A stretch of 24,199 bases of DNA, taken from a virus (lineage: Duplodnaviria; Caudoviricetes). Shown here one piece after another: positions 4,596-22,777 of this stretch. The notes below the pieces were generated by a model. That model was not told the origin of the DNA. It did not search any database and worked only from the letters and a program-made list of their open reading frames with translations. The stretch lies in the IMG/VR virus record IMGVR_UViG_3300024279_000014, positions 1 through 24,199 of that record, one strand, 5' to 3'. Position 1 is the stretch's first letter. Each line of letters opens with the position of its first letter. The translations under genes were made by a program, and so were the position numbers.

Positions 4596-4685
4596 GCGGG
4601 CAGTAGTAGGGTGGGTAACCGTCTTGCCGCAAGCATGGCGTTCATCGGACGCTGTAAAATACCCTGCTGTTCCGGAGGGGATCGA

Positions 4686-5807
4686 ATGAAGAAACTTGAC
4701 AGCCTCACTGCACTGCGATTTTTCGCAGCCGCTTCCATTGTCATTGAGCATAGCCGGAATGGGTTCCAGTCAATGGATTGGATTCCGATATTTCATTATG
4801 ATTATGGAGTCAGTTTCTTCTTCGTGCTGTCGGGGTTCATTCTCTGTTACGCGTACCGCAGTTTTGATGGCGCGCCAAGCGTGCGCGATTTCTATGTCGC
4901 ACGGATTGCGCGGATATGGCCGCTTCATCTCTTCATGTTGTGTGTCTACCTGATGTTGGTTCCGAAGTCGGGTTGGTCGCCGGGTTGGGGCGGCGGGTAC
5001 CATGCGGCGATAATTTTTTCAAATGCCCTGATGATTCACGCATGGATACCAATATCGGCATTTTTCTTCGGGTTAAACGCGGTGTCGTGGAGTATCTCAG
5101 CTGAGGCATTCTTCTACTTGATGTTTCCTGTTTTGCGCAATCGCTGGGCGCAAACTTGGCACTGGAAATCTCTTTTAGTGCTATCTGCTTCATGTGCGAT
5201 TCTGCTCATCTCGACAGCATATGGAGTAAAGCCGCTCAACCCATCTGATCCGTGGGCGATTTCATCCGAGGGCATCGGATATATATCACCCCTAGTCCGC
5301 ATTATCGAATTTGTAATGGGTATGCTGGTCTCAAACGCGTACGTAGCTATCCAAAGCCGAAAATTACCTGAAAGCGTGGCTATGTGGACGGTGATCGAGG
5401 TGGGCGCCCTGGCGTTGGTGGTACTGACCGATCGTTTAGTTGGGCATTCTTATGCGTCGCCGTGGTCTGTATTCTGTCTTGAATCCGCTGACGCTCCAGC
5501 ATTCGCTTTCGTCGTTTTGGTTTTCTCGGTCGGCAACGGCTTGATCTCCAGATTAATTTCTACGCGACCGCTAGTGCTTCTAGGGGAGTCGAGTTTCGCG
5601 CTGTACCTGCTCCATCTTGTTCTCTACAGGGTGTTCGACACGCATAGACAACTCTTTACTGTTCCCGATGCGGTGCTCTGCATCGGATACTGGGCGACGG
5701 CAATCGGGGTTTCTCTGCTGCTGTGGCGTTTCGTCGAAACCCCGGCGAGGGATTGGATACGGAATCGGGCGCGGCGCGAAGTCGTTCCAACATCGGCGGC
5801 GATTTAG
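4686..5807 (+). CDS. Acyltransferase family 3 (OafA/Oac-like O-acetyltransferase), moron
   Basis: Start MKKLDSL at 4686 after GGAGGGG. Motifs DSLTALRFFAA, GVSFFFVLSGF, RIARIWPLH, WSISAEAFFY, LGESSFALYLLH, FVETP. Many TM segments; more AT-rich than the tail genes. Confidence 0.9.
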   Translation: MKKLDSLTALRFFAAASIVIEHSRNGFQSMDWIPIFHYDYGVSFFFVLSGFILCYAYRSFDGAPSVRDFYVARIARIWPLHLFMLCVYLMLVPKSGWSPGWGGGYHAAIIFSNALMIHAWIPISAFFFGLNAVSWSISAEAFFYLMFPVLRNRWAQTWHWKSLLVLSASCAILLISTAYGVKPLNPSDPWAISSEGIGYISPLVRIIEFVMGMLVSNAYVAIQSRKLPESVAMWTVIEVGALALVVLTDRLVGHSYASPWSVFCLESADAPAFAFVVLVFSVGNGLISRLISTRPLVLLGESSFALYLLHLVLYRVFDTHRQLFTVPDAVLCIGYWATAIGVSLLLWRFVETPARDWIRNRARREVVPTSAAI

Positions 5808-9213: not shown

Positions 9214-9843
9214 CTATTTTACCCTTCCAAACCCCAACGCCTCAGGCCTGCTGTAGCCAGCGTTCTTGATCTTAATCCAGTTGAGTGAACGGCCGCGCAT
9301 ATAGACAGACCATGTTCGCTTTGCCACCATCCCCTCGAAGTCGTGGCGTTGCACCTGCTCGAACACAAGCTCTCCGACGCCCTCAGCATGCGTCACATAG
9401 ACTAGGCGCGGCGTGTCGTCAAAGCTGTCGCGAAGCTGCTGTTTGCGCTCGAATAGTGGCCTGTCTCGGAGGTCGCGCGTCCCTGACGTGAGCATATCGA
9501 ACACGTACAGGCGCGCGGGGCACTTCCTGACGGCAGATGGGATGCTTCTGGGCGATATGGTTTTGGCCCGCTGCTGGAGTAATCCAAAATCGCCGCCGCG
9601 ACCAGCTCCGACCGCCAGTTCCGCATCCAATACGAAATCGCCTGGCACCGCAAAAACAGCCTTGACGACATCGGGAAACGACAGGTTGAACGGCTTACCC
9701 TCGCGGCTGATCAGATCCACTTGATCGCCGTGCTTTCTGACAAGGCATCTGAAGCCGTCGAATTTCCATTCGAACAGCCAGTCGTGGCTCGAGAACGGAC
9801 GCTTTTGCAGCGTCGAGTGCATCAGGTCGGTCGCTTCGATCAC
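9214..9843 (-). CDS. ATP-dependent DNA ligase, adenylation domain only
   Basis: Motifs I EWKFDGFR, III FVLDAEL, IIIa LYVFDML, IV FEGMVAK and V WIKIK. Start uncertain (GTG 9843, ATG 9822 or TTG 9912). Confidence 0.85.
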   Translation of the reverse strand: MIEATDLMHSTLQKRPFSSHDWLFEWKFDGFRCLVRKHGDQVDLISREGKPFNLSFPDVVKAVFAVPGDFVLDAELAVGAGRGGDFGLLQQRAKTISPRSIPSAVRKCPARLYVFDMLTSGTRDLRDRPLFERKQQLRDSFDDTPRLVYVTHAEGVGELVFEQVQRHDFEGMVAKRTWSVYMRGRSLNWIKIKNAGYSRPEALGFGRVK

Positions 9844-10010
9844 TTTCGCGACGCAAACACATAAGCTAGTTTCGCCCACGCATCGTCTCGCGGGCATCCC
9901 GTCAGGCTGCAAAAATGCTCAAAGTCATCGACCGGTGTATGGCCTAGGTCGTTCGGCGCGCCCGTCAACTCGGCCAGGATCGCCTCTGGATTTCCGTACT
10001 CGAACATGGC

Positions 10011-10250: not shown

Positions 10251-10404
10251 TGGTCAATGGTACGCCTATCGCGGTTAGTGTGTGCCATAGGCCGATGCCA
10301 ATCCCAATAGCAACAAGGGTCTGCCGGGTGTCAAAAGTCTGCACAATGGCACATTTCGACGTGCACAACCTATTGTTTCATTTGCATTATCTGGCGCTCC
10401 GTTC

Positions 10405-10451
10405 GATAGGTTAATAACCTATCCGGGGTTCGAATCCCCGTCTCTCCGCCA
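10405..10451 (+). mobile_element. attP core: 3' half of a tRNA-Ser
   Basis: Long variable arm GATAGG-TTAATAA-CCTATC, T-arm CGGGG-TTCGAAT-CCCCG, acceptor strand TCTCTCC, discriminator G and CCA. No 5' half upstream; 75 bp from the integrase stop. Confidence 0.85.
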
Positions 10452-10483
10452 CCCTACACATAAGGCTTTGCGGCCTTTCCACA

Positions 10484-10511
10484 AACCCCGCTGTGCCATA
10501 AAAGCGGGGTT
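10484..10511. terminator. Hairpin downstream of integrase
   Basis: AACCCCGCT...AGCGGGGTT inverted repeat. Confidence 0.5.
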
Positions 10512-10525
10512 GTGCCATAGAATCG

Positions 10526-11578
10526 TCAGCGCAGCGGCCTTACGCGCTCCGGTTTTCTGCGATAAATCCTCTCGGTAACCTTGCCGTCGGCGTGCGCGAG
10601 CAACGCTTGCGCGTGCTCAAGCGTCTCCGCATCGCTGGCGCATTTCGCACGGAGATCGTGCTCGGTGAAGTGCTCTTTGACCTTCGTCTCGTCGAGCACG
10701 CGCCCCATGAAATTGCGCCACATCGTGTCCCATCCGCCGGCGCGCCCGGTGTCCTCGTTGAAGTAGCACTCGCCGCTCCGGTTGCAGAACAGCCACGGCG
10801 CGATCGAGACTGGCCGCGTCGATTTCGCCATGGCGACGGCTTCGCGCAGCTCGGTTGACCATTCGTAGATGAGCCGCTTCCCGGTCGAGCTTTCCGTCTT
10901 TCCCGGCGTCACGTGGATGCCGTCCTCTTGCAGGTCTGACATCGTCAGGCGCAACAGATCGCCGCGGCGCAGTCCAGTCAGCAGTTTGAGGCGCATGTAC
11001 GCCTGGATCGCGAGCACGCTGCCGCTCTTGCGGCGCGACTCCAGCGACAGGCATTCGATGATTTCCCAGTCTTCGACATAGCGCGTGCGCGGCTTCTCGC
11101 CATCAAGTCTCACCTCGCCCTTGAAGGGATGCTTGTCGAGGTAACCCCATTCGACAGCCTTCGTGTAGGCGTGGGATAGCACTTCGATTTCGCGGCGCGC
11201 GGCTGTCTTGGCTGATCGCTTGTCGACGTACTGGTAGATGTGGCGCGGCTTGAGCGAGGTCAGCGCTAGCGCGCCCATCACTGCGCGCAGGCGCTTGATC
11301 GCGACGGCGTTGTGCGCCTGAGTCGTGACTTCCTTCTTCGGCACGACCTCGAGCGAATAGCGCTCAAGCAGTTCGCCGATGGTCTTTGCATCGTCGAGTG
11401 AGCCCAGCCGTTCGGCCCAAACCTTGTAGGCTTCGGGCAACGACTTTCCGAGTCGGAATTGCTTCTTCCCGTCCCACGACGCTTCCAGGCCCTCGGGCAC
11501 GCGGTAGTAATAGGCCCCGTGGATGGTTCGCCAGCGAGCCGGAAGGCCCTTGTTTTCTTTGTTTCTGGCCTTCGGCAT
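10526..11578 (-). CDS. int: Tyrosine integrase
   Basis: Catalytic R (TGLRRGDL), K (PGKT), HxLR (HDLRAK), H (LAHAD) and Y (RIYRR); N-terminal arm-binding domain (YYYRVP); adjacent to att. Confidence 0.95.
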   Translation of the reverse strand: MPKARNKENKGLPARWRTIHGAYYYRVPEGLEASWDGKKQFRLGKSLPEAYKVWAERLGSLDDAKTIGELLERYSLEVVPKKEVTTQAHNAVAIKRLRAVMGALALTSLKPRHIYQYVDKRSAKTAARREIEVLSHAYTKAVEWGYLDKHPFKGEVRLDGEKPRTRYVEDWEIIECLSLESRRKSGSVLAIQAYMRLKLLTGLRRGDLLRLTMSDLQEDGIHVTPGKTESSTGKRLIYEWSTELREAVAMAKSTRPVSIAPWLFCNRSGECYFNEDTGRAGGWDTMWRNFMGRVLDETKVKEHFTEHDLRAKCASDAETLEHAQALLAHADGKVTERIYRRKPERVRPLR

Positions 11579-11800
11579 TTATGCTGCGCTCCAGTCCGGC
11601 ATTGCTTCGTTCTGCGCGCTGCTGTCGCCGGCGGCGCCGAGCTGCTGCTCGACGTGGCGACGCGAGACGACCAGACGGCCATCGGCGCGCACCTTGTGTT
11701 CGATTCCCATCGCGCGCAGCGCGGCTTCCTGCGAAGCGCGCTGACGGCGCCCGGTCAAGTCGACCAGTTCTTCGGGTGAGAGAAACATCGAATTGATCAT
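11579..11800 (-). CDS. DUF4224 family putative excisionase
   Basis: FLSPEELVDLTGRR-Q-ALRAMGI-RADGR-VV pattern; its stop abuts the int ATG. Confidence 0.85.
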   Translation of the reverse strand: MINSMFLSPEELVDLTGRRQRASQEAALRAMGIEHKVRADGRLVVSRRHVEQQLGAAGDSSAQNEAMPDWSAA

Positions 11801-11856
11801 CTGATGCTCCAGTTTCTGCGTGTGGTTTCGATTACTCGTTGTGCTGCTTCGGTCAT
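11797..11856 (-). CDS. 19-codon ORF (MTEAAQRVIETTRRNWSIR) coupled to excisionase
   Basis: Read manually. Starts in the 18-bp repeat and ends in an ATGA overlap with the DUF4224 start. Confidence 0.4.
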   Translation of the reverse strand: MTEAAQRVIETTRRNWSIR

Positions 11857-11866
11857 GCTAGGATTC
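11849..11866. repeat. 18-bp direct repeat copy 1, TCGGTCATGCTAGGATTC
   Basis: Exact match to 12621-12638. Contains an extended -10 (TG-C-TAGGAT) on + and ATGA on -. Confidence 0.9.
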
Positions 11867-11888
11867 GCGGAAAAATCGGAGGCCATGC

Positions 11889-12266
11889 ATGAATGACTTC
11901 ATCCACGAGCATAAAGTCGAGACGTATAAGTCGCTCATCACGATCTCCCTTGAGGCTTTCAAATACCTCGCGTTGTTGAACGGCGGCGCCGCTGCAGGCA
12001 TGCTGACGGGCATGGACCGCGTCGTATCCCTGATTGGCAAATCGGCTTTCCGAGAGTCGATGGTCTTTTTTGTTACCGGGCTCGCTTGCAGTGGACTGGC
12101 AATCATCCTTGCCTGGTGCACGCAATATCGACTGCACGCAGAAAACATTGGTCGAGCGAAATTGGATAGCCATAAATCGATCGTCAATGTTGCTTTGGTT
12201 TGCGTTGTTCTCAGCTTTGCGGCGTTTTGCATCGGCTCCCTGCATGCGGCTTTTAAGATTCATTGA
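11889..12266 (+). CDS. Moron 1: membrane protein (125 aa, about 3 TM)
   Basis: GGAGG RBS; opposite orientation to the operon; more AT-rich; hydrophobic segments (LALLNGGAAAGML etc.). Confidence 0.75.
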   Translation: MNDFIHEHKVETYKSLITISLEAFKYLALLNGGAAAGMLTGMDRVVSLIGKSAFRESMVFFVTGLACSGLAIILAWCTQYRLHAENIGRAKLDSHKSIVNVALVCVVLSFAAFCIGSLHAAFKIH

Positions 12267-12628
12267 GTGCTGGCTTGCTTCTCTGCGGATGCCGCGATAG
12301 CGCTCAAGGCGGCGTCCCATTCCTTTTGCATCTGCGCGAGCTTCTCGCAGAGTTGATTGTCGAGTTCCTCGCCAGTTCGCTGCGCCATGTTGAACATCGT
12401 GTTCGCCATGCGCGCGCCGGCCCGCTTCAAAGCTTCGAATCTCGCATCCTTCGCCATTGCGCTGTCAGCGACAGGGGCGGCGTAGAGCGGCGTAACGCGC
12501 CAGCCTTGGTTCTCGTAATGCTCGACGGTGGGCTTCTTCGAAGTGAGAAAGGCCAATGCAGGGCGCTCGCCCTCGGGGGATGCGCATTCCCACGCAACAG
12601 GCTTCAGACTCTTGATGTTGTCGGTCAT
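12260..12628 (-). CDS. Eaa/Ead-like early phage protein (122 aa)
   Basis: Start MTDNIKS at 12628 inside the repeat; PVAW...VTPLYAAP module typical of lambdoid early-left mosaic proteins. Confidence 0.7.
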   Translation of the reverse strand: MTDNIKSLKPVAWECASPEGERPALAFLTSKKPTVEHYENQGWRVTPLYAAPVADSAMAKDARFEALKRAGARMANTMFNMAQRTGEELDNQLCEKLAQMQKEWDAALSAIAASAEKQASTQ

Positions 12629-12638
12629 GCTAGGATTC
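12621..12638. repeat. 18-bp direct repeat copy 2, TCGGTCATGCTAGGATTC
   Basis: Exact match to 11849-11866. Confidence 0.9.
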
Positions 12639-12660
12639 CGACCGCTCGGAGAAGAAAAAC

Positions 12661-13299
12661 ATGGAAAGAGTTGTGTATCGGTACGCGACCTTGGTTCTGC
12701 TGGCAATTTGTGGTTTCTTGGCTTATGACTGCGTCCCATGGAAAAAAGTGGACGGACCGACATGGGCTGGCTGGGCGCAGGCGATCGGTAGCGTCGCGGC
12801 GATAGCGGTTGCGATGTGGCTTGCCACACGAGAAGACCGCCGAAGGTCTGCCGAAGCTATGTCCCTTGCGGTTGCAACCGGAGCAGCTCTCACGACTCGG
12901 CTCGCTATTGCGTCGATACAAGCCGAGCGCCAGTGGAAGAAACTTGCTTTCATGGCTAAGCATGACGCCGCCCCCAGTACTTTTGAGACTGCAAACGAGC
13001 AACTGTCGGCGATAGACATCGGAACGATCGACGACGTGAAGTCTTTGATTCCTCTTCCCGACGACGCTGCGTACAAACTGGCGGGAGCGCAAGACCGGCT
13101 TCTCGCCGTACGGCGCATGCTGAAAATGGCTTCTGAGAGCCGTGAAATTCTCGATAACTCCGAATTGAGAAAAGATTTCGCCGGTCAGTGTGAGTGGTTG
13201 CTTGGCGAACTGCGAGACCTTGTCGACAAGGTCCATAAGGAATGCGAGCAGGCCAGTCATGGCCGCGTCAGTTCTGGCTGGCCTTTCAACTTGAGCTAA
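12661..13299 (+). CDS. Moron 2: N-terminally membrane-anchored helical protein (212 aa)
   Basis: GGAG RBS; two TM segments including WAGWAQAIGSVAAIAVA, then a helical soluble domain; inverted orientation. Confidence 0.78.
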   Translation: MERVVYRYATLVLLAICGFLAYDCVPWKKVDGPTWAGWAQAIGSVAAIAVAMWLATREDRRRSAEAMSLAVATGAALTTRLAIASIQAERQWKKLAFMAKHDAAPSTFETANEQLSAIDIGTIDDVKSLIPLPDDAAYKLAGAQDRLLAVRRMLKMASESREILDNSELRKDFAGQCEWLLGELRDLVDKVHKECEQASHGRVSSGWPFNLS

Positions 13300-13328
13300 T
13301 TTCTGGCATACCGATGGAGATCTCATAT

Positions 13329-14423
13329 TTACGCTCCCGCATCGACGGCTGGCGCTTCCGGCGAGGGGGCGGCGGGCAGCGGCGAGTGCTTCGGTTTCGC
13401 GGCCTGCTTGGCGCGGATCGCTTCTACCTTCGTCCAGATGCGCGCTAGTTCCGTCTCGCCAGCCGCGTGCATGTCTTGGCCGCTCGCGAGGCACAACGCG
13501 GCGAGCGTGACCATTACGCCGCCGACTTCCTGATGAAGCTCACCGATGGGCCGGTCGAACGTGTAGTCAACGAGCTGGTGCGCTTCGCTGCGCGTCATGC
13601 CGTTGGCCTGAACGAGTTCGGTCGCTTCCTCGAAAAAGCGATGGTTGCGCTCGATACGATCTGCCGCGATTTCAGCGCCGAAGCATTCCATCATCCACGG
13701 CTGCACGCGCGCCTGAAACGGCAACGCCACCTCTGTCGGCGCAATGGCGTCGTCGAATACCGCCGTCGCAGTGTCATTGGGTTCCGGCCAGATCACGTCT
13801 CGCGCAATGGCGTCAGTCGCTTCGGTAGTGGCGAGTGCGGCGCGGGCGGATTCGCGAGTGACGATCTCGACCGCCTCGGCTTCGAGATTCTGAAGGCGTC
13901 GCAGTTCGTGCAGTACGCCGCCGATCGATTCCGCTTCACTCACGGTGATTCCGCGATCTTCGCTGTAGCTCAGCGACTGGCAGTCGGCGATACAGGCCAT
14001 AAGAGCGTGCCGGGCATAGGGGTTCACAACATTCTTTGTGTCATCAAGAAATGACGCATACGCTTCGATCTGCGCGCGGGTTTTCTCCGCGACAGCATCC
14101 AACTTTCGCGCCCATACCTTGTGAATATGCTTTCCCTTGTACTCATCCGCAGCCGGGTTATAGGTGCGAAGCTCGTGCGCGATGCGCTCAAGTTCCGACA
14201 CGTGCGCCTCCCGCTCTGCAATGGCCGCTGCGTCAGCGAGGGGGGTGGGAGTGGCGGCCCATGTGTTTAATTCCGTCGTTAGCGTCGTGATCGGGTCGTC
14301 GTTGCAGACAATTGCTGGTGCGTCGCGTAGCACCATCAGTTCGCGGATTTCATGCGGCTGTCCGTTGAGTGCTGCCAGAAGTTGGCGTAGCGCCTTCGCG
14401 TCCACTTCAATTCGTTCGTTCAT
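13329..14423 (-). CDS. Mosaic early protein with C-terminal MazG-like NTP pyrophosphohydrolase domain
   Basis: RFFEEATELVQA and ELHQEVGGVMVTLAALC resemble the EExxE...ExxD pattern (final Asp replaced by Gly); AAGGA RBS. Confidence 0.65.
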   Translation of the reverse strand: MNERIEVDAKALRQLLAALNGQPHEIRELMVLRDAPAIVCNDDPITTLTTELNTWAATPTPLADAAAIAEREAHVSELERIAHELRTYNPAADEYKGKHIHKVWARKLDAVAEKTRAQIEAYASFLDDTKNVVNPYARHALMACIADCQSLSYSEDRGITVSEAESIGGVLHELRRLQNLEAEAVEIVTRESARAALATTEATDAIARDVIWPEPNDTATAVFDDAIAPTEVALPFQARVQPWMMECFGAEIAADRIERNHRFFEEATELVQANGMTRSEAHQLVDYTFDRPIGELHQEVGGVMVTLAALCLASGQDMHAAGETELARIWTKVEAIRAKQAAKPKHSPLPAAPSPEAPAVDAGA

Positions 14424-14443
14424 GGTTGTCGTTGTCCTTGCGG

Positions 14444-15457
14444 TTAGATCAGGATCACTTCGCGAGCTGCGCGGATGAATTCCGCCGCTGCTTCCGCATT
14501 GATCGCGTTGCCGTAGGCGCGCAGTCGTCCCACGCGCGAGGGAGCCCCATCAGCCAGCGGGAATGTGCCGGGTTCAACTGGCCGCCACTTGCCATCTCGG
14601 CATAAGAGCCAATCAGCATCTCGCCAGAAGCCGTTAGTCGGGCCGGCTGCGGGTTCTCTTTGAGCAGCGCGACTGCGTGATTCAGCGTCAGGTTCTTGGT
14701 AGTGAATTGCGCCGCTGGCTTTCTCAATGCATCCGTCGCTGTGGGCATCGGCCATCCAGCCAGGCAAGCTGCTGCCGCGAGATCCGGACCGTGATTGCGC
14801 ATCGCCTCGATCAAGCCGCCCTCGAAGGTACGCACTCCCTTCTCCGCGAGCGCGGCCGTTGGCGTGGGCCAACCCGCCAACCACGCGACGCGGCCGAGCA
14901 GCGCGTTCAGCGGAACGTTCGCGCACTCGCTGCCGTCCTTGTGATCGCGCGTGGTGGGCGTGGGCCATCCAGAAAGCTCGATCGCGGATTCCCGGCGTGC
15001 CGACGCCCGCAGCCGGGAACGGCTGACACCCGAAGGCGTAGTCCAACGTTTCCACGTCAGCTTGTACAAGGTCGATCCAAGGGTCGACGTCCTTGCTCGC
15101 AACCTGCTCTCCAAAGACGATTGCAGGTCGGCACTCGCCGATGAGCCAGGAGAAGTCTGGCCAGAGATGCCGCTCATCATCAAACCCAAGGCCTTTGCCT
15201 GCCGCGCTGAAAGGTTGGCACGGACAGGAACCGGTCCAAACAGGTCGATCGTCAGGCCATTCAGCGAGTCGAAGCGCGTATGACCAGACACCGATTCCGG
15301 CGAAGAAATGGCACTGCGTGTAGCCTCGCAGGTCATCAGGTCGGACATCTTCAATGCTCCTTTCGTCTACGTCGCCCGGCGCGATGTGCCCGGCGGTTAT
15401 CAGGTTGCGCAGCCACTGCGCGGCGTATGGGTCGATCTCGTTGTAGTAAGCGGCCAT
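14444..15457 (-). CDS. C5 DNA cytosine methyltransferase, alpha chain (lacks motif IX)
   Basis: Motifs [33 protein letters not shown] and [10 protein letters not shown]. Confidence 0.92.
14455..15354 (-). CDS. Overlapping alternative-frame methyltransferase beta chain (motif IX plus three WP(T/M)P modules)
   Basis: 299-codon same-strand ORF nested in the MTase; [15 protein letters not shown] is motif IX-like; EcoHK31I-type arrangement. True start uncertain. Confidence 0.75.
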
Positions 15458-18832: not shown

Positions 18833-18873
18833 ATACTACAAATGTATTTATAGCTTGTCAATACAATTGTATT
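18833..18873 (-). promoter_or_regulatory. PL promoter with OL operators
   Basis: Minus strand TTGACA (18861-18856), 17 bp, TAGTAT (18838-18833). Operators ACTACAAATGTATT 18835-18848 and AATACAATTGTATT 18860-18873. Confidence 0.85.
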
Positions 18874-18923
18874 TGCGAATAGATTCTGAAAGGGGCATGT
18901 ATTTACCGTGGTGCCGAAGAAAC

Positions 18924-18948
18924 AAAAAAGCCCGCGCGTGGCGGGCTT
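18924..18948 (-). terminator. Terminator of the cI operon
   Basis: Minus strand AAGCCCGC-CACGC-GCGGGCTT-TTTT. Confidence 0.8.
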
Positions 18949-18966
18949 CTCTTATGTCGGCTGGGG

Positions 18967-21685: not shown

Positions 21686-22777
21686 ATGAGCGGATACGCA
21701 CACCAATGGGCGAAGCGTCAGCGGGTCGGCGACTCGTCTGCGAAAACGCTGCTTAAGACCTACGCGAACTGGGCCAGCGAGGACTATTCGACGTGGGTCA
21801 CCAACGAAGAGCTTGAGCTCGACACCGAGCTCAACATCCAGACGATCCGCAGCGCGCGGAAGAAGCTCATCGAGCTTGGCTATCTGATCGAAACGGACAA
21901 GCGCATCGGCCGGACGCAGAGCATCGTCGTCTACCAGATGCTCGCTCCCGCCGGCGCGACGATCGTTCAAAGCATTGATGCTCGTGGCGAAACAATCTCG
22001 CTGAGCCCGCCGACCCTCGAAGAGTTTCTGACTAAGAGGGGTGGAAAATACAGCCCCTCCAAATCTCACCCCTCTAAGGGTGGTGGAAATTCAAGCCCCT
22101 CCAAATCTCAAGCGGCTTCAGATCCCACTTCAAGCCCCTCCAAATCACACGTCGAAGGGGGTGAAATTTCACCAGAAGCCCCTCCAAATTTCGACACCAA
22201 GATAGCTTTAGTAGAGCAAGAGAAAGAAGTAGCTCAGCAACCTGCGCGGCGTGCGCCGCGAGTCGCGTTGCATGCCGAACTGCAATCGACCGAACTGCCC
22301 GATTGGCTCGCGTTTGAAGATTGGGACATGTGGTGCGAGCACCGCGAGGCCAAGAGCAAAGACGCGCCTTGGACGCGCGGCGCCGCGATCGTGTCGATTC
22401 GCCGCCTGACGAAGCTACGCGACCAGGGTCTTGATGCTCGCGCCGTGATCGAGGAGGCGGTGCTGCGCGGGTGGACGGGTCTGTTCCCGGTCAAGCCGGA
22501 TACGCCGGTTGCTGGCACGACGGCCGCTGTCGCTGCCGATTGGTGGAAAACGTCGAGCGGGATCGAATCGATGGGCGCGCGTCATAGCCTGAAGCAGAAG
22601 GATGGCGAGACGTTCATGCACTTCAAGGTCCGTGTTTTCAAGGCAGCAGGTCCGGGCGAATGGATGGAAGACATGCTGCGCACGGTCGGGCGGGAGAGCG
22701 AGGAACGGTACGAGCAGTTGTACGCCTACTTCAACGACATTCCGCGCGAGAAGGCAGCGCAAGCGGAGGTCGCATGA
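21686..22777 (+). CDS. Replication initiator (N-terminal HTH, lambda O-like organisation)
   Basis: N-terminal wHTH (ELELDTELNIQTIRSARKKLIELGYL), internal iterons, C-terminal LPDWL-W-W-HR...GWTGLF domain. Confidence 0.82.
   Translation: MSGYAHQWAKRQRVGDSSAKTLLKTYANWASEDYSTWVTNEELELDTELNIQTIRSARKKLIELGYLIETDKRIGRTQSIVVYQMLAPAGATIVQSIDARGETISLSPPTLEEFLTKRGGKYSPSKSHPSKGGGNSSPSKSQAASDPTSSPSKSHVEGGEISPEAPPNFDTKIALVEQEKEVAQQPARRAPRVALHAELQSTELPDWLAFEDWDMWCEHREAKSKDAPWTRGAAIVSIRRLTKLRDQGLDARAVIEEAVLRGWTGLFPVKPDTPVAGTTAAVAADWWKTSSGIESMGARHSLKQKDGETFMHFKVRVFKAAGPGEWMEDMLRTVGRESEERYEQLYAYFNDIPREKAAQAEVA
22034..22189 (+). repeat. Replication origin iterons, 4 x AGCCCCTCCAAAT
   Basis: Exact copies start at 22052, 22094, 22133 and 22177; three are preceded by a GGGGTG(G)AAAT-like element. 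Confidence 0.85.

Follow-up and report, generated by a model that had tools for sequence, protein, structure and literature searches.

Stop-free antisense frames, coupled at both ends to early-left genes, span many inverted accessory genes in Burkholderiaceae prophages

The window analysed here is the complete 24,199-base virus record IMGVR_UViG_3300024279_000014 (Caudoviricetes). Its left part carries Mu-like baseplate and lysis genes, followed by an early-left operon on the minus strand and then by cI and replication genes. The operon extends from a PL-like promoter candidate, likely the source of its transcript, down to the excisionase and integrase genes, xis and int (Table 1). Set between its co-directional genes are two antisense genes, cargo 1 and cargo 2, each crossed on the operon strand by a long open reading frame (ORF), here called a bridge, that is joined at either end to the neighbouring operon genes. 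These bridges, and the family of cassettes to which they belong, are the subject of this report.

Seven minus-strand ORFs of 364, 233, 122, 136, 19, 73 and 350 amino acids (aa) form the chain. Their positions and lengths were reproduced, as was the observation in a preliminary description of this DNA that no junction gap exceeds 2 nucleotides (nt); in chain order the gaps are +2, -4, -4, -4, -4 and 0 nt. The junction ATGs do open the bridges as described but are not the first in-frame starts, the previous stops lying at 13540 and 12465. The names given to xis and int were borne out by their family matches. The 364-aa gene had been called MazG-like, a label that was not confirmed, neither Pfam nor the PDB sequences giving a match; its single DNA match lies under a phage Pam3 gene annotated as a nucleotide pyrophosphohydrolase. 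The C-terminal half of the 122-aa gene resembles early genes located upstream of xis in loci L039 and L040, and the mini-ORF is kept upstream of xis in relatives L002, L024 and L045 and in the empty alleles L036 and L047. Neither bridge matches a Pfam or PHROG family. The ATG of bridge 2, 2 nt past the upstream TAA, has a Shine-Dalgarno (SD)-like site of -7.9 kcal/mol, and xis and int have sites of their own. The site of the 122-aa gene is weak, and bridge 1 and the mini-ORF have none, so that the bridge 1 unit should depend most on re-initiation. No notable RNA folding was found at the window junctions (z -0.8 to +1.6), and a scan of the minus strand from 10300 to 14600 gave no terminator-like site.

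Table 1. Features of the relay chain and its surroundings in the window
Feature	Position	Strand	Basis
Tyrosine integrase, int	10526..11578	-	Pfam and PHROG
Excisionase, xis (DUF4224; PHROG excisionase)	11579..11800	-	Pfam and PHROG
19-codon mini-ORF; TGA overlaps xis ATG	11797..11856	-	ORF call
Junction repeat copy 1, 18 nt, hexamer 11859-11864; holds mini-ORF start and bridge 1 stop	11849..11866		direct repeat
Bridge 1, relay frame of 136 codons on the strand opposite cargo 1; ATGA coupling on either side	11853..12263	-	ORF call
Second open antisense frame, 124 aa, over most of cargo 1; ends at repeat TAG	11858..12232	-	ORF call
Cargo (moron) 1, 125-aa predicted membrane protein	11889..12266	+	ORF call
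122-aa early gene; TGA overlaps bridge 1 ATG	12260..12628	-	ORF call
Junction repeat copy 2, 18 nt, hexamer 12631-12636; holds 122-aa gene start and bridge 2 stop	12621..12638		direct repeat
Bridge 2, relay frame of 233 codons on the strand opposite cargo 2; TGA overlaps next ATG	12625..13326	-	ORF call
Cargo (moron) 2, 212 aa, hydrophobic N-terminal segment	12661..13299	+	ORF call
364-aa early gene; TAA leads into bridge 2	13329..14423	-	unknown-function PHROGs 8593/14118 over C-terminal part
Early-left (PL-like) promoter candidate, TTGACA-17-TAGTAT	18833..18861	-	consensus match only

Neither cargo contains a single TTA, CTA or TCA codon. The preliminary description had cautioned that such openness is trivial in GC-rich genes. 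This caveat is weaker than stated, since the GC content at third codon positions (GC3) is only 0.62 and 0.59 in the two cargos, and the chance of zero antisense stops at the rates of out-of-register cargos (described below) is 0.085 and 0.034. The two identical bridge ends, read as ...ILA-TGA, are real but are not independent of each other, because both fall within one 18 nt direct repeat. They therefore amount to one observation rather than two, and any test has to come from relatives. The 16 nt core of the repeat occurs in two exact copies in the window, where 0.19 would be expected with up to three mismatches. On the operon strand it reads TAG-C-ATG-A, that is, a stop, the start of the next gene and the stop of the bridge, and it thereby gives a bridge three possible exits, the preferred TGA that overlaps the ATG, the TAG one base earlier, and in-frame fusion. 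In L001, L005, L013, L217, L340 and L342 some frames stop about 11-20 nt short of the ATG, at a TGA within the SD-like part of the motif, possibly a fourth exit.

On the cargo strand the same repeat reads as an extended -10-like element, TG-n-TAGGAT, with A-rich positions 7-9 nt later in the family profile, and both cargos in the window start 36 nt from the bridge TGA. We infer that the junction element is the promoter of the cargo. A general promoter scan did not list it, and the invariance of the hexamer within the motif set is by construction. Homologs found by protein similarity contain the hexamer variants TAGTAT, TACGAT and TAGGCT, in which positions 1, 2 and 6 are always T, A and T, and this fits a promoter.

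Relatives were collected by motif scans of viral contigs, metagenomes and genomes, which gave at least 502 distinct sites; family counts were taken among the matches listed in these scans, so that totals are lower bounds. In one genus 28 of 151 genomes contained the motif and the control gave no match; in another it was present in 19 of 78 genomes, with two control matches. At least 237 sites are joined with the window in one protein-homology network, and 230 passed a filter on GC content and degree. A cargo ORF of at least 40 codons was present at 205 of these sites, its start being picked by SD score, blind to frame. At 80% identity the 205 cargos form 164 clusters, grouped in 73 families, and 161 are complete; six rows were dropped for odd spacing or chance context (one being RNase HII), leaving 155 for the register test. 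The set thus comprises at least 161 non-redundant cargos in about 70 families, mostly of unknown proteins, the largest of which includes cargo 2. All network sites with named hosts are from Burkholderiaceae (Paraburkholderia, Cupriavidus, Ralstonia pickettii, Caballeronia and Herbaspirillum). The ATG of the motif opens many different early genes, with a different cargo following on the other strand; the downstream ORF is shorter than 40 codons or cut by the end of the locus in 45 of 161 cases. Locus L020 holds five motif copies in 7 kb, and tandem cassettes also occur in L003, L007, L011 and L026, some being parted only by motif-started ORFs of 9-30 codons. Matches of a pattern having C ahead of the ATG, like most of those across GTDB, proved to be largely chance, lay outside the homology network and were set aside. 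No close relative of the window was found among the named phages in INPHARED, and no motif variant in the stretches examined from phages Magia, Bm1 and IPK. In an integrase-based search the upstream regions were, among the matches listed, mostly empty or unrelated.

Within this family the distance from the TGA to the cargo start is strongly biased, with 45 cassettes at 36 nt and 49 at 39 nt, as opposed to 8, 8, 9 and 6 at 35, 37, 38 and 40 nt. Cargo and TGA frame share their codon register in 107 of 155 cassettes (111 of 164 before rows were dropped), where one third would be expected (binomial p 1e-19). With one random member per family, a mean of 44.4 of 67 is in register (minimum 37). The leaders between motif and cargo are highly diverse in sequence, so the bias does not stem from two founder sequences. 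Register also goes along with the absence of stops. Of 108 in-register cargos, 86 are free of antisense stops, against 38.2 ± 4.4 expected from the rates of out-of-register cargos, of which 24 of 53 are stop-free. This control is conservative, its TAG-register frame being open in 13/29 and its ATG-register frame in 5/24. A coupled frame crosses the entire cargo in 80/108 in-register and 7/53 out-of-register cases. A family bootstrap places the difference in the stop-free fraction between the two groups at 0.16-0.48. Among cargos of at least 100 aa, 27 of 39 in-register and 8 of 25 out-of-register ones are stop-free. GC3 is the same in both groups (0.62), and A-ending codons in other boxes are about equally frequent (0.199 vs 0.185). 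Operon genes with GC3 below 0.70 are stop-free in just 1 of 26 cases, though they are longer than the cargos.

The entry side of the frames was examined in the same set. Open in-register frames start at -4 or -1 relative to the upstream stop in 54 of 91 cases. In a blind walk from the longest upstream ORF, 120 cassettes were evaluable, 30 had no callable upstream ORF and 11 had short flanks. A start at -4 or -1 was present in 86 of the 120, and in 53 of those it reaches the motif. Synonymous recoding gave a null of 19.9 ± 3.3, with a maximum of 26 in 60 runs; adding a leader indel left this unchanged (19.8) because all three exits count as reaching. SD-like sites precede 74% of canonical starts that reach the motif, 39% of canonical starts that do not, and 20% of random positions. 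The preliminary description had proposed that antisense frames in relatives be compared with codon-shuffled controls, and by this comparison they are open and coupled well above the null.

As the motif was used in assembling the family, we also took an independent sample by protein, consisting of 11 homologs of the two window cargos (L635, which repeats L046, and the weak L646 were left out). Seven of the 11, two of them nearly identical to each other, are open and entered at -4 or +2; they follow different upstream genes and leave by ATGA, by TAG, by fusion or at a more distant point. One locus, L634, carries a cargo 2 homolog of 82%. The remaining four homologs, L642-L645, have 1-4 antisense stops and lie in other contexts. 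In L046 the homolog of cargo 1 (84% identical, with a synonymous divergence, dS, of about 2) is bridged in another frame, which is fused to the next gene. The homologous frame in the window, 11858..12232, is also open and may be a former or spare relay.

The peptides encoded by the bridges drift. Bridge identity is 24-40% where cargo identity is 61-65%, and the median ratio of nonsynonymous to synonymous change (dN/dS) is 0.22 for cargos and 1.31 for bridges (59 non-independent pairs from 12 families), with 1.04 for the same antisense comparison in 7 unbridged pairs. By these measures the cargo proteins are under purifying selection and the bridge peptides are not constrained. Some alleles lack a cargo. 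In L036 and L047 the neighbours are joined directly before the mini-ORF, and phage Magia has an empty junction at the site that is filled in L019. Comparison of these alleles indicates that a cassette is the ATGA overlap of the empty allele lengthened into a relay. The early-left operon of phage Magia (L647:4503-6048) also contains a reverse transcriptase and an Avd-like gene, as annotated.

Because the peptide drifts, homologs switch frames and exits, and empty alleles join directly, what is under selection is the open, doubly coupled frame itself. This part of the earlier inference, that frames are kept open and junction-coupled, is supported by register, stop purge, starts, drift and empty alleles; its further part, that the frames serve to keep the transcript covered, is likely but less certain. 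Rho-dependent polarity on ribosome-free RNA is textbook knowledge. On induction, the bridge would be translated from the early transcript: ribosomes would leave the upstream early gene, re-start at the entry codon that overlaps its stop, cross the whole cargo in antisense and hand over to the next early gene. An early-left transcript covered in this way would protect the genes that follow, among them xis and int, against Rho-type polarity, most likely because Rho is denied several hundred ribosome-free bases. We think it probable that such a ribosome relay keeps the early transcript covered and makes antisense insertion non-polar. With somewhat less assurance we favor a broader reading as well, namely that these Burkholderiaceae prophages possess a natural non-polar cassette system in which one element may act as cargo promoter, ribosome hand-over and exchange boundary, the antisense codons being translated only to keep ribosomes moving.

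Several points weigh against ribosome coverage as the purpose of the bridges. No single relay start reaches the motif in 58/120 cassettes (55/120 with a relaxed exit), and antisense stops are present in 22/108 in-register cargos. The preliminary description had named frequent antisense stops or uncoupled junctions as contrary evidence; the bias exceeds its null, but with 58 of 120 cassettes having no single relay frame it is a strong tendency and not a rule. A multi-step relay reaches the motif in 29 of the 58 unbridged cassettes, but as this figure has no null it was not counted. In a further 30/150 cassettes the script could not call an ORF upstream. The empty junction may itself be the source of the entry overlap. 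Exit by TAG would cover the RNA equally, yet exact ATGA is preferred about four to one (107 vs 27), so hand-over geometry matters too, and xis and int have SD-like sites of their own. Of 120 cargos, 105 have more C than G on the operon strand, with bridged and unbridged cassettes alike in this (p 0.44); the skew was therefore rejected as a signature, and nothing points to Rho specifically. Lastly, an N-type antiterminator may be at work, although none was recognised, and no PHROG match was obtained, among the small ORFs after the PL-like promoter. Around this promoter (18833-18950, minus strand) there are AAATACA-type repeats, and a two-way terminator-like hairpin precedes it.

The preference for ATGA would also be expected if the bridges were translated in order to bring ribosomes to the next start, with coverage being incidental. 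The missing SD-like sites of bridge 1 and the mini-ORF, and the weak one of the 122-aa gene, agree with such translational coupling. However, the family consensus has GAGG on the operon strand ahead of the downstream ATG, the downstream SD is slightly stronger in bridged cassettes (-5.2 vs -4.5, p 0.015), and xis and int are independently equipped. Compensation for a missing downstream SD was accordingly rejected, the family trend being the opposite, and we consider this explanation unlikely.

Another possibility is that ribosome traffic keeps the early transcript from forming a duplex with the cargo mRNA and from being cut by RNase III, or that read-through switches the cargo off in the manner of an excludon. 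No terminator-like site was found on the plus strand past 12266 or 13299, behind either cargo, and 48 of 61 bridged cassettes have the upstream stop no more than 20 nt from the end of the cargo, so that full overlap of the two RNAs is unavoidable. A noncontiguous operon in which a prophage defence gene undergoes antisense switching has been described (PMC11087260). The cargos, however, gave no PADLOC match (0 of 80, both window cargos included), and the available main text of that paper mentions no open frame on the operon strand and does not contain the terms 'translation', 'rho' or 'polar'. We regard this explanation as quite improbable.

The open frames might also be a by-product of codon bias, and the junctions relics of an ATGA overlap at the point of insertion. 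According to the part of 10.1101/724807 available, antisense frames in register are frequently open, which codon use can explain; operon genes with GC3 of at least 0.80 are stop-free in 12 of 26 cases, and an ancestral origin of the entry overlap is possible, as seen from the empty alleles. Codon bias, though, cannot depend on leader length modulo 3 or yield the double peak at 36 and 39 nt, A-ending codons in other boxes are not depleted, and frames out of register also serve as relays (L046, L305, L361 and L318). This reading is very improbable and, as far as these comparisons go, already largely refuted. Hardly any credence can be given to the bridges being genuine overlapping genes with a protein product, such as a cargo inhibitor: they are long ORFs with good starts, and functional overlapping genes are reported from phage Fc02 in the accessible text of PMC9936078, but their dN/dS is not below that of unbridged pairs, they diverge far more than the cargos, the frame in use differs between homologs, no Pfam or PHROG family matches them, and purifying selection, which in overlapping genes would act on the products of both strands, is seen on the cargo only.

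Searches for cargo function with Pfam, PADLOC and the ESM Atlas led to clusters of hypothetical proteins at most. Pfam matched 5 of 79 cargo representatives, one of them a chance site; a weak HEPN (Swt1-like) match (L029:2866-3465) and a TonB C-terminal match (L020:2095-2469) were seen. Classical morons have their own promoter and their own terminator, and no intrinsic terminator follows the cargos in the window. Elsewhere in the window, a C5 methyltransferase is encoded in two fully overlapping minus-strand frames (14444-15457 and 14455-15354), both with PHROG methyltransferase matches. Just beyond int, the segment 10423-10450 resembles the 3' part of a tRNA, and we take it to be the likely attP core; ARAGORN found no whole tRNA there. 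Four iteron-like repeats with a spacing of about 42 nt (22032-22193) lie within the O-like replication gene, a low-GC acyltransferase gene follows the tail genes (4611-5807, plus strand), and a small ATP-dependent DNA ligase adjoins the lysis genes (9214-9912, minus strand).

If the relay is real, the codons of dozens of unrelated accessory gene families carry a hidden second code, and long antiparallel ORFs would gain a function that resides in translation and not in the product. It would account for strand flips of annotation in prophage early regions. The junction motif, which tags about 70 families of small accessory proteins, could then be used to search out a large number of uncharacterised lysogeny genes. 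The arrangement also suggests a rule by which antisense insertions could be designed to be non-polar.

Parts of this arrangement are familiar. Stop-start overlaps of the ATGA and TAATG type are known to couple translation, and the same -4 and -1 overlaps occur here at both bridge ends; unlike in those cases, the bridge runs the full length of an antisense gene and its product is not conserved. Morons are self-promoted, and T4 PeSL elements and the start-associated sequences of mycobacteriophages are repeated regulatory cassettes. The cassettes resemble these in being accessory genes with a (candidate) promoter of their own and in that a short repeated gene-start motif accompanies modular exchange, but they differ in lacking a terminator-like site after the cargo and in having a two-stranded motif that fixes the relation of reading frames. 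With leader peptides and engineered non-polar cassettes, translation matters and the product does not, and re-coupling removes polarity. The same would hold for the bridges, which however are hundreds of codons long, natural, and share their DNA with an opposite-strand gene that is under purifying selection. In the part of 10.1101/724807 available, in-register antisense frames avoid stops while their peptide is unselected, and its authors speculate that translation itself may matter; coupling to flanking genes, a register constraint, an operon context and a mechanism are absent from what is described there. A search of open-access papers, supplements and subscription journals aside, turned up neither the relay nor the junction motif.

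The closest known systems are the noncontiguous operons of S. aureus and phage 80alpha (PMC11034616, PMC11087260). As judged from sequence, the arrangement is a variant of these, the added part being a product-free relay frame and a two-strand junction element that we did not find in print. In PMC11034616, as far as its available text goes, transcription must persist over untranslated antisense stretches, which is explained by runaway transcription in Gram-positive bacteria (Firmicutes), and such stretches are a difficulty for operons of this kind where transcription and translation are coupled. A relay would answer that named problem, the crossing of an antisense gene where ribosome-free RNA is terminated, and would show how noncontiguous operons can exist in bacteria with such coupling. 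As in those operons, so far as they are described in the available texts, an antisense gene with a promoter of its own (here a candidate) is nested in an operon, and as in phage 80alpha a prophage would tie an accessory gene to its lysis-lysogeny switch. The crossed stretch, untranslated there, is here a stop-free frame under selection that is joined to its neighbours on either side, and what is inserted is an exchangeable cassette that recurs and is built on a fixed junction element.

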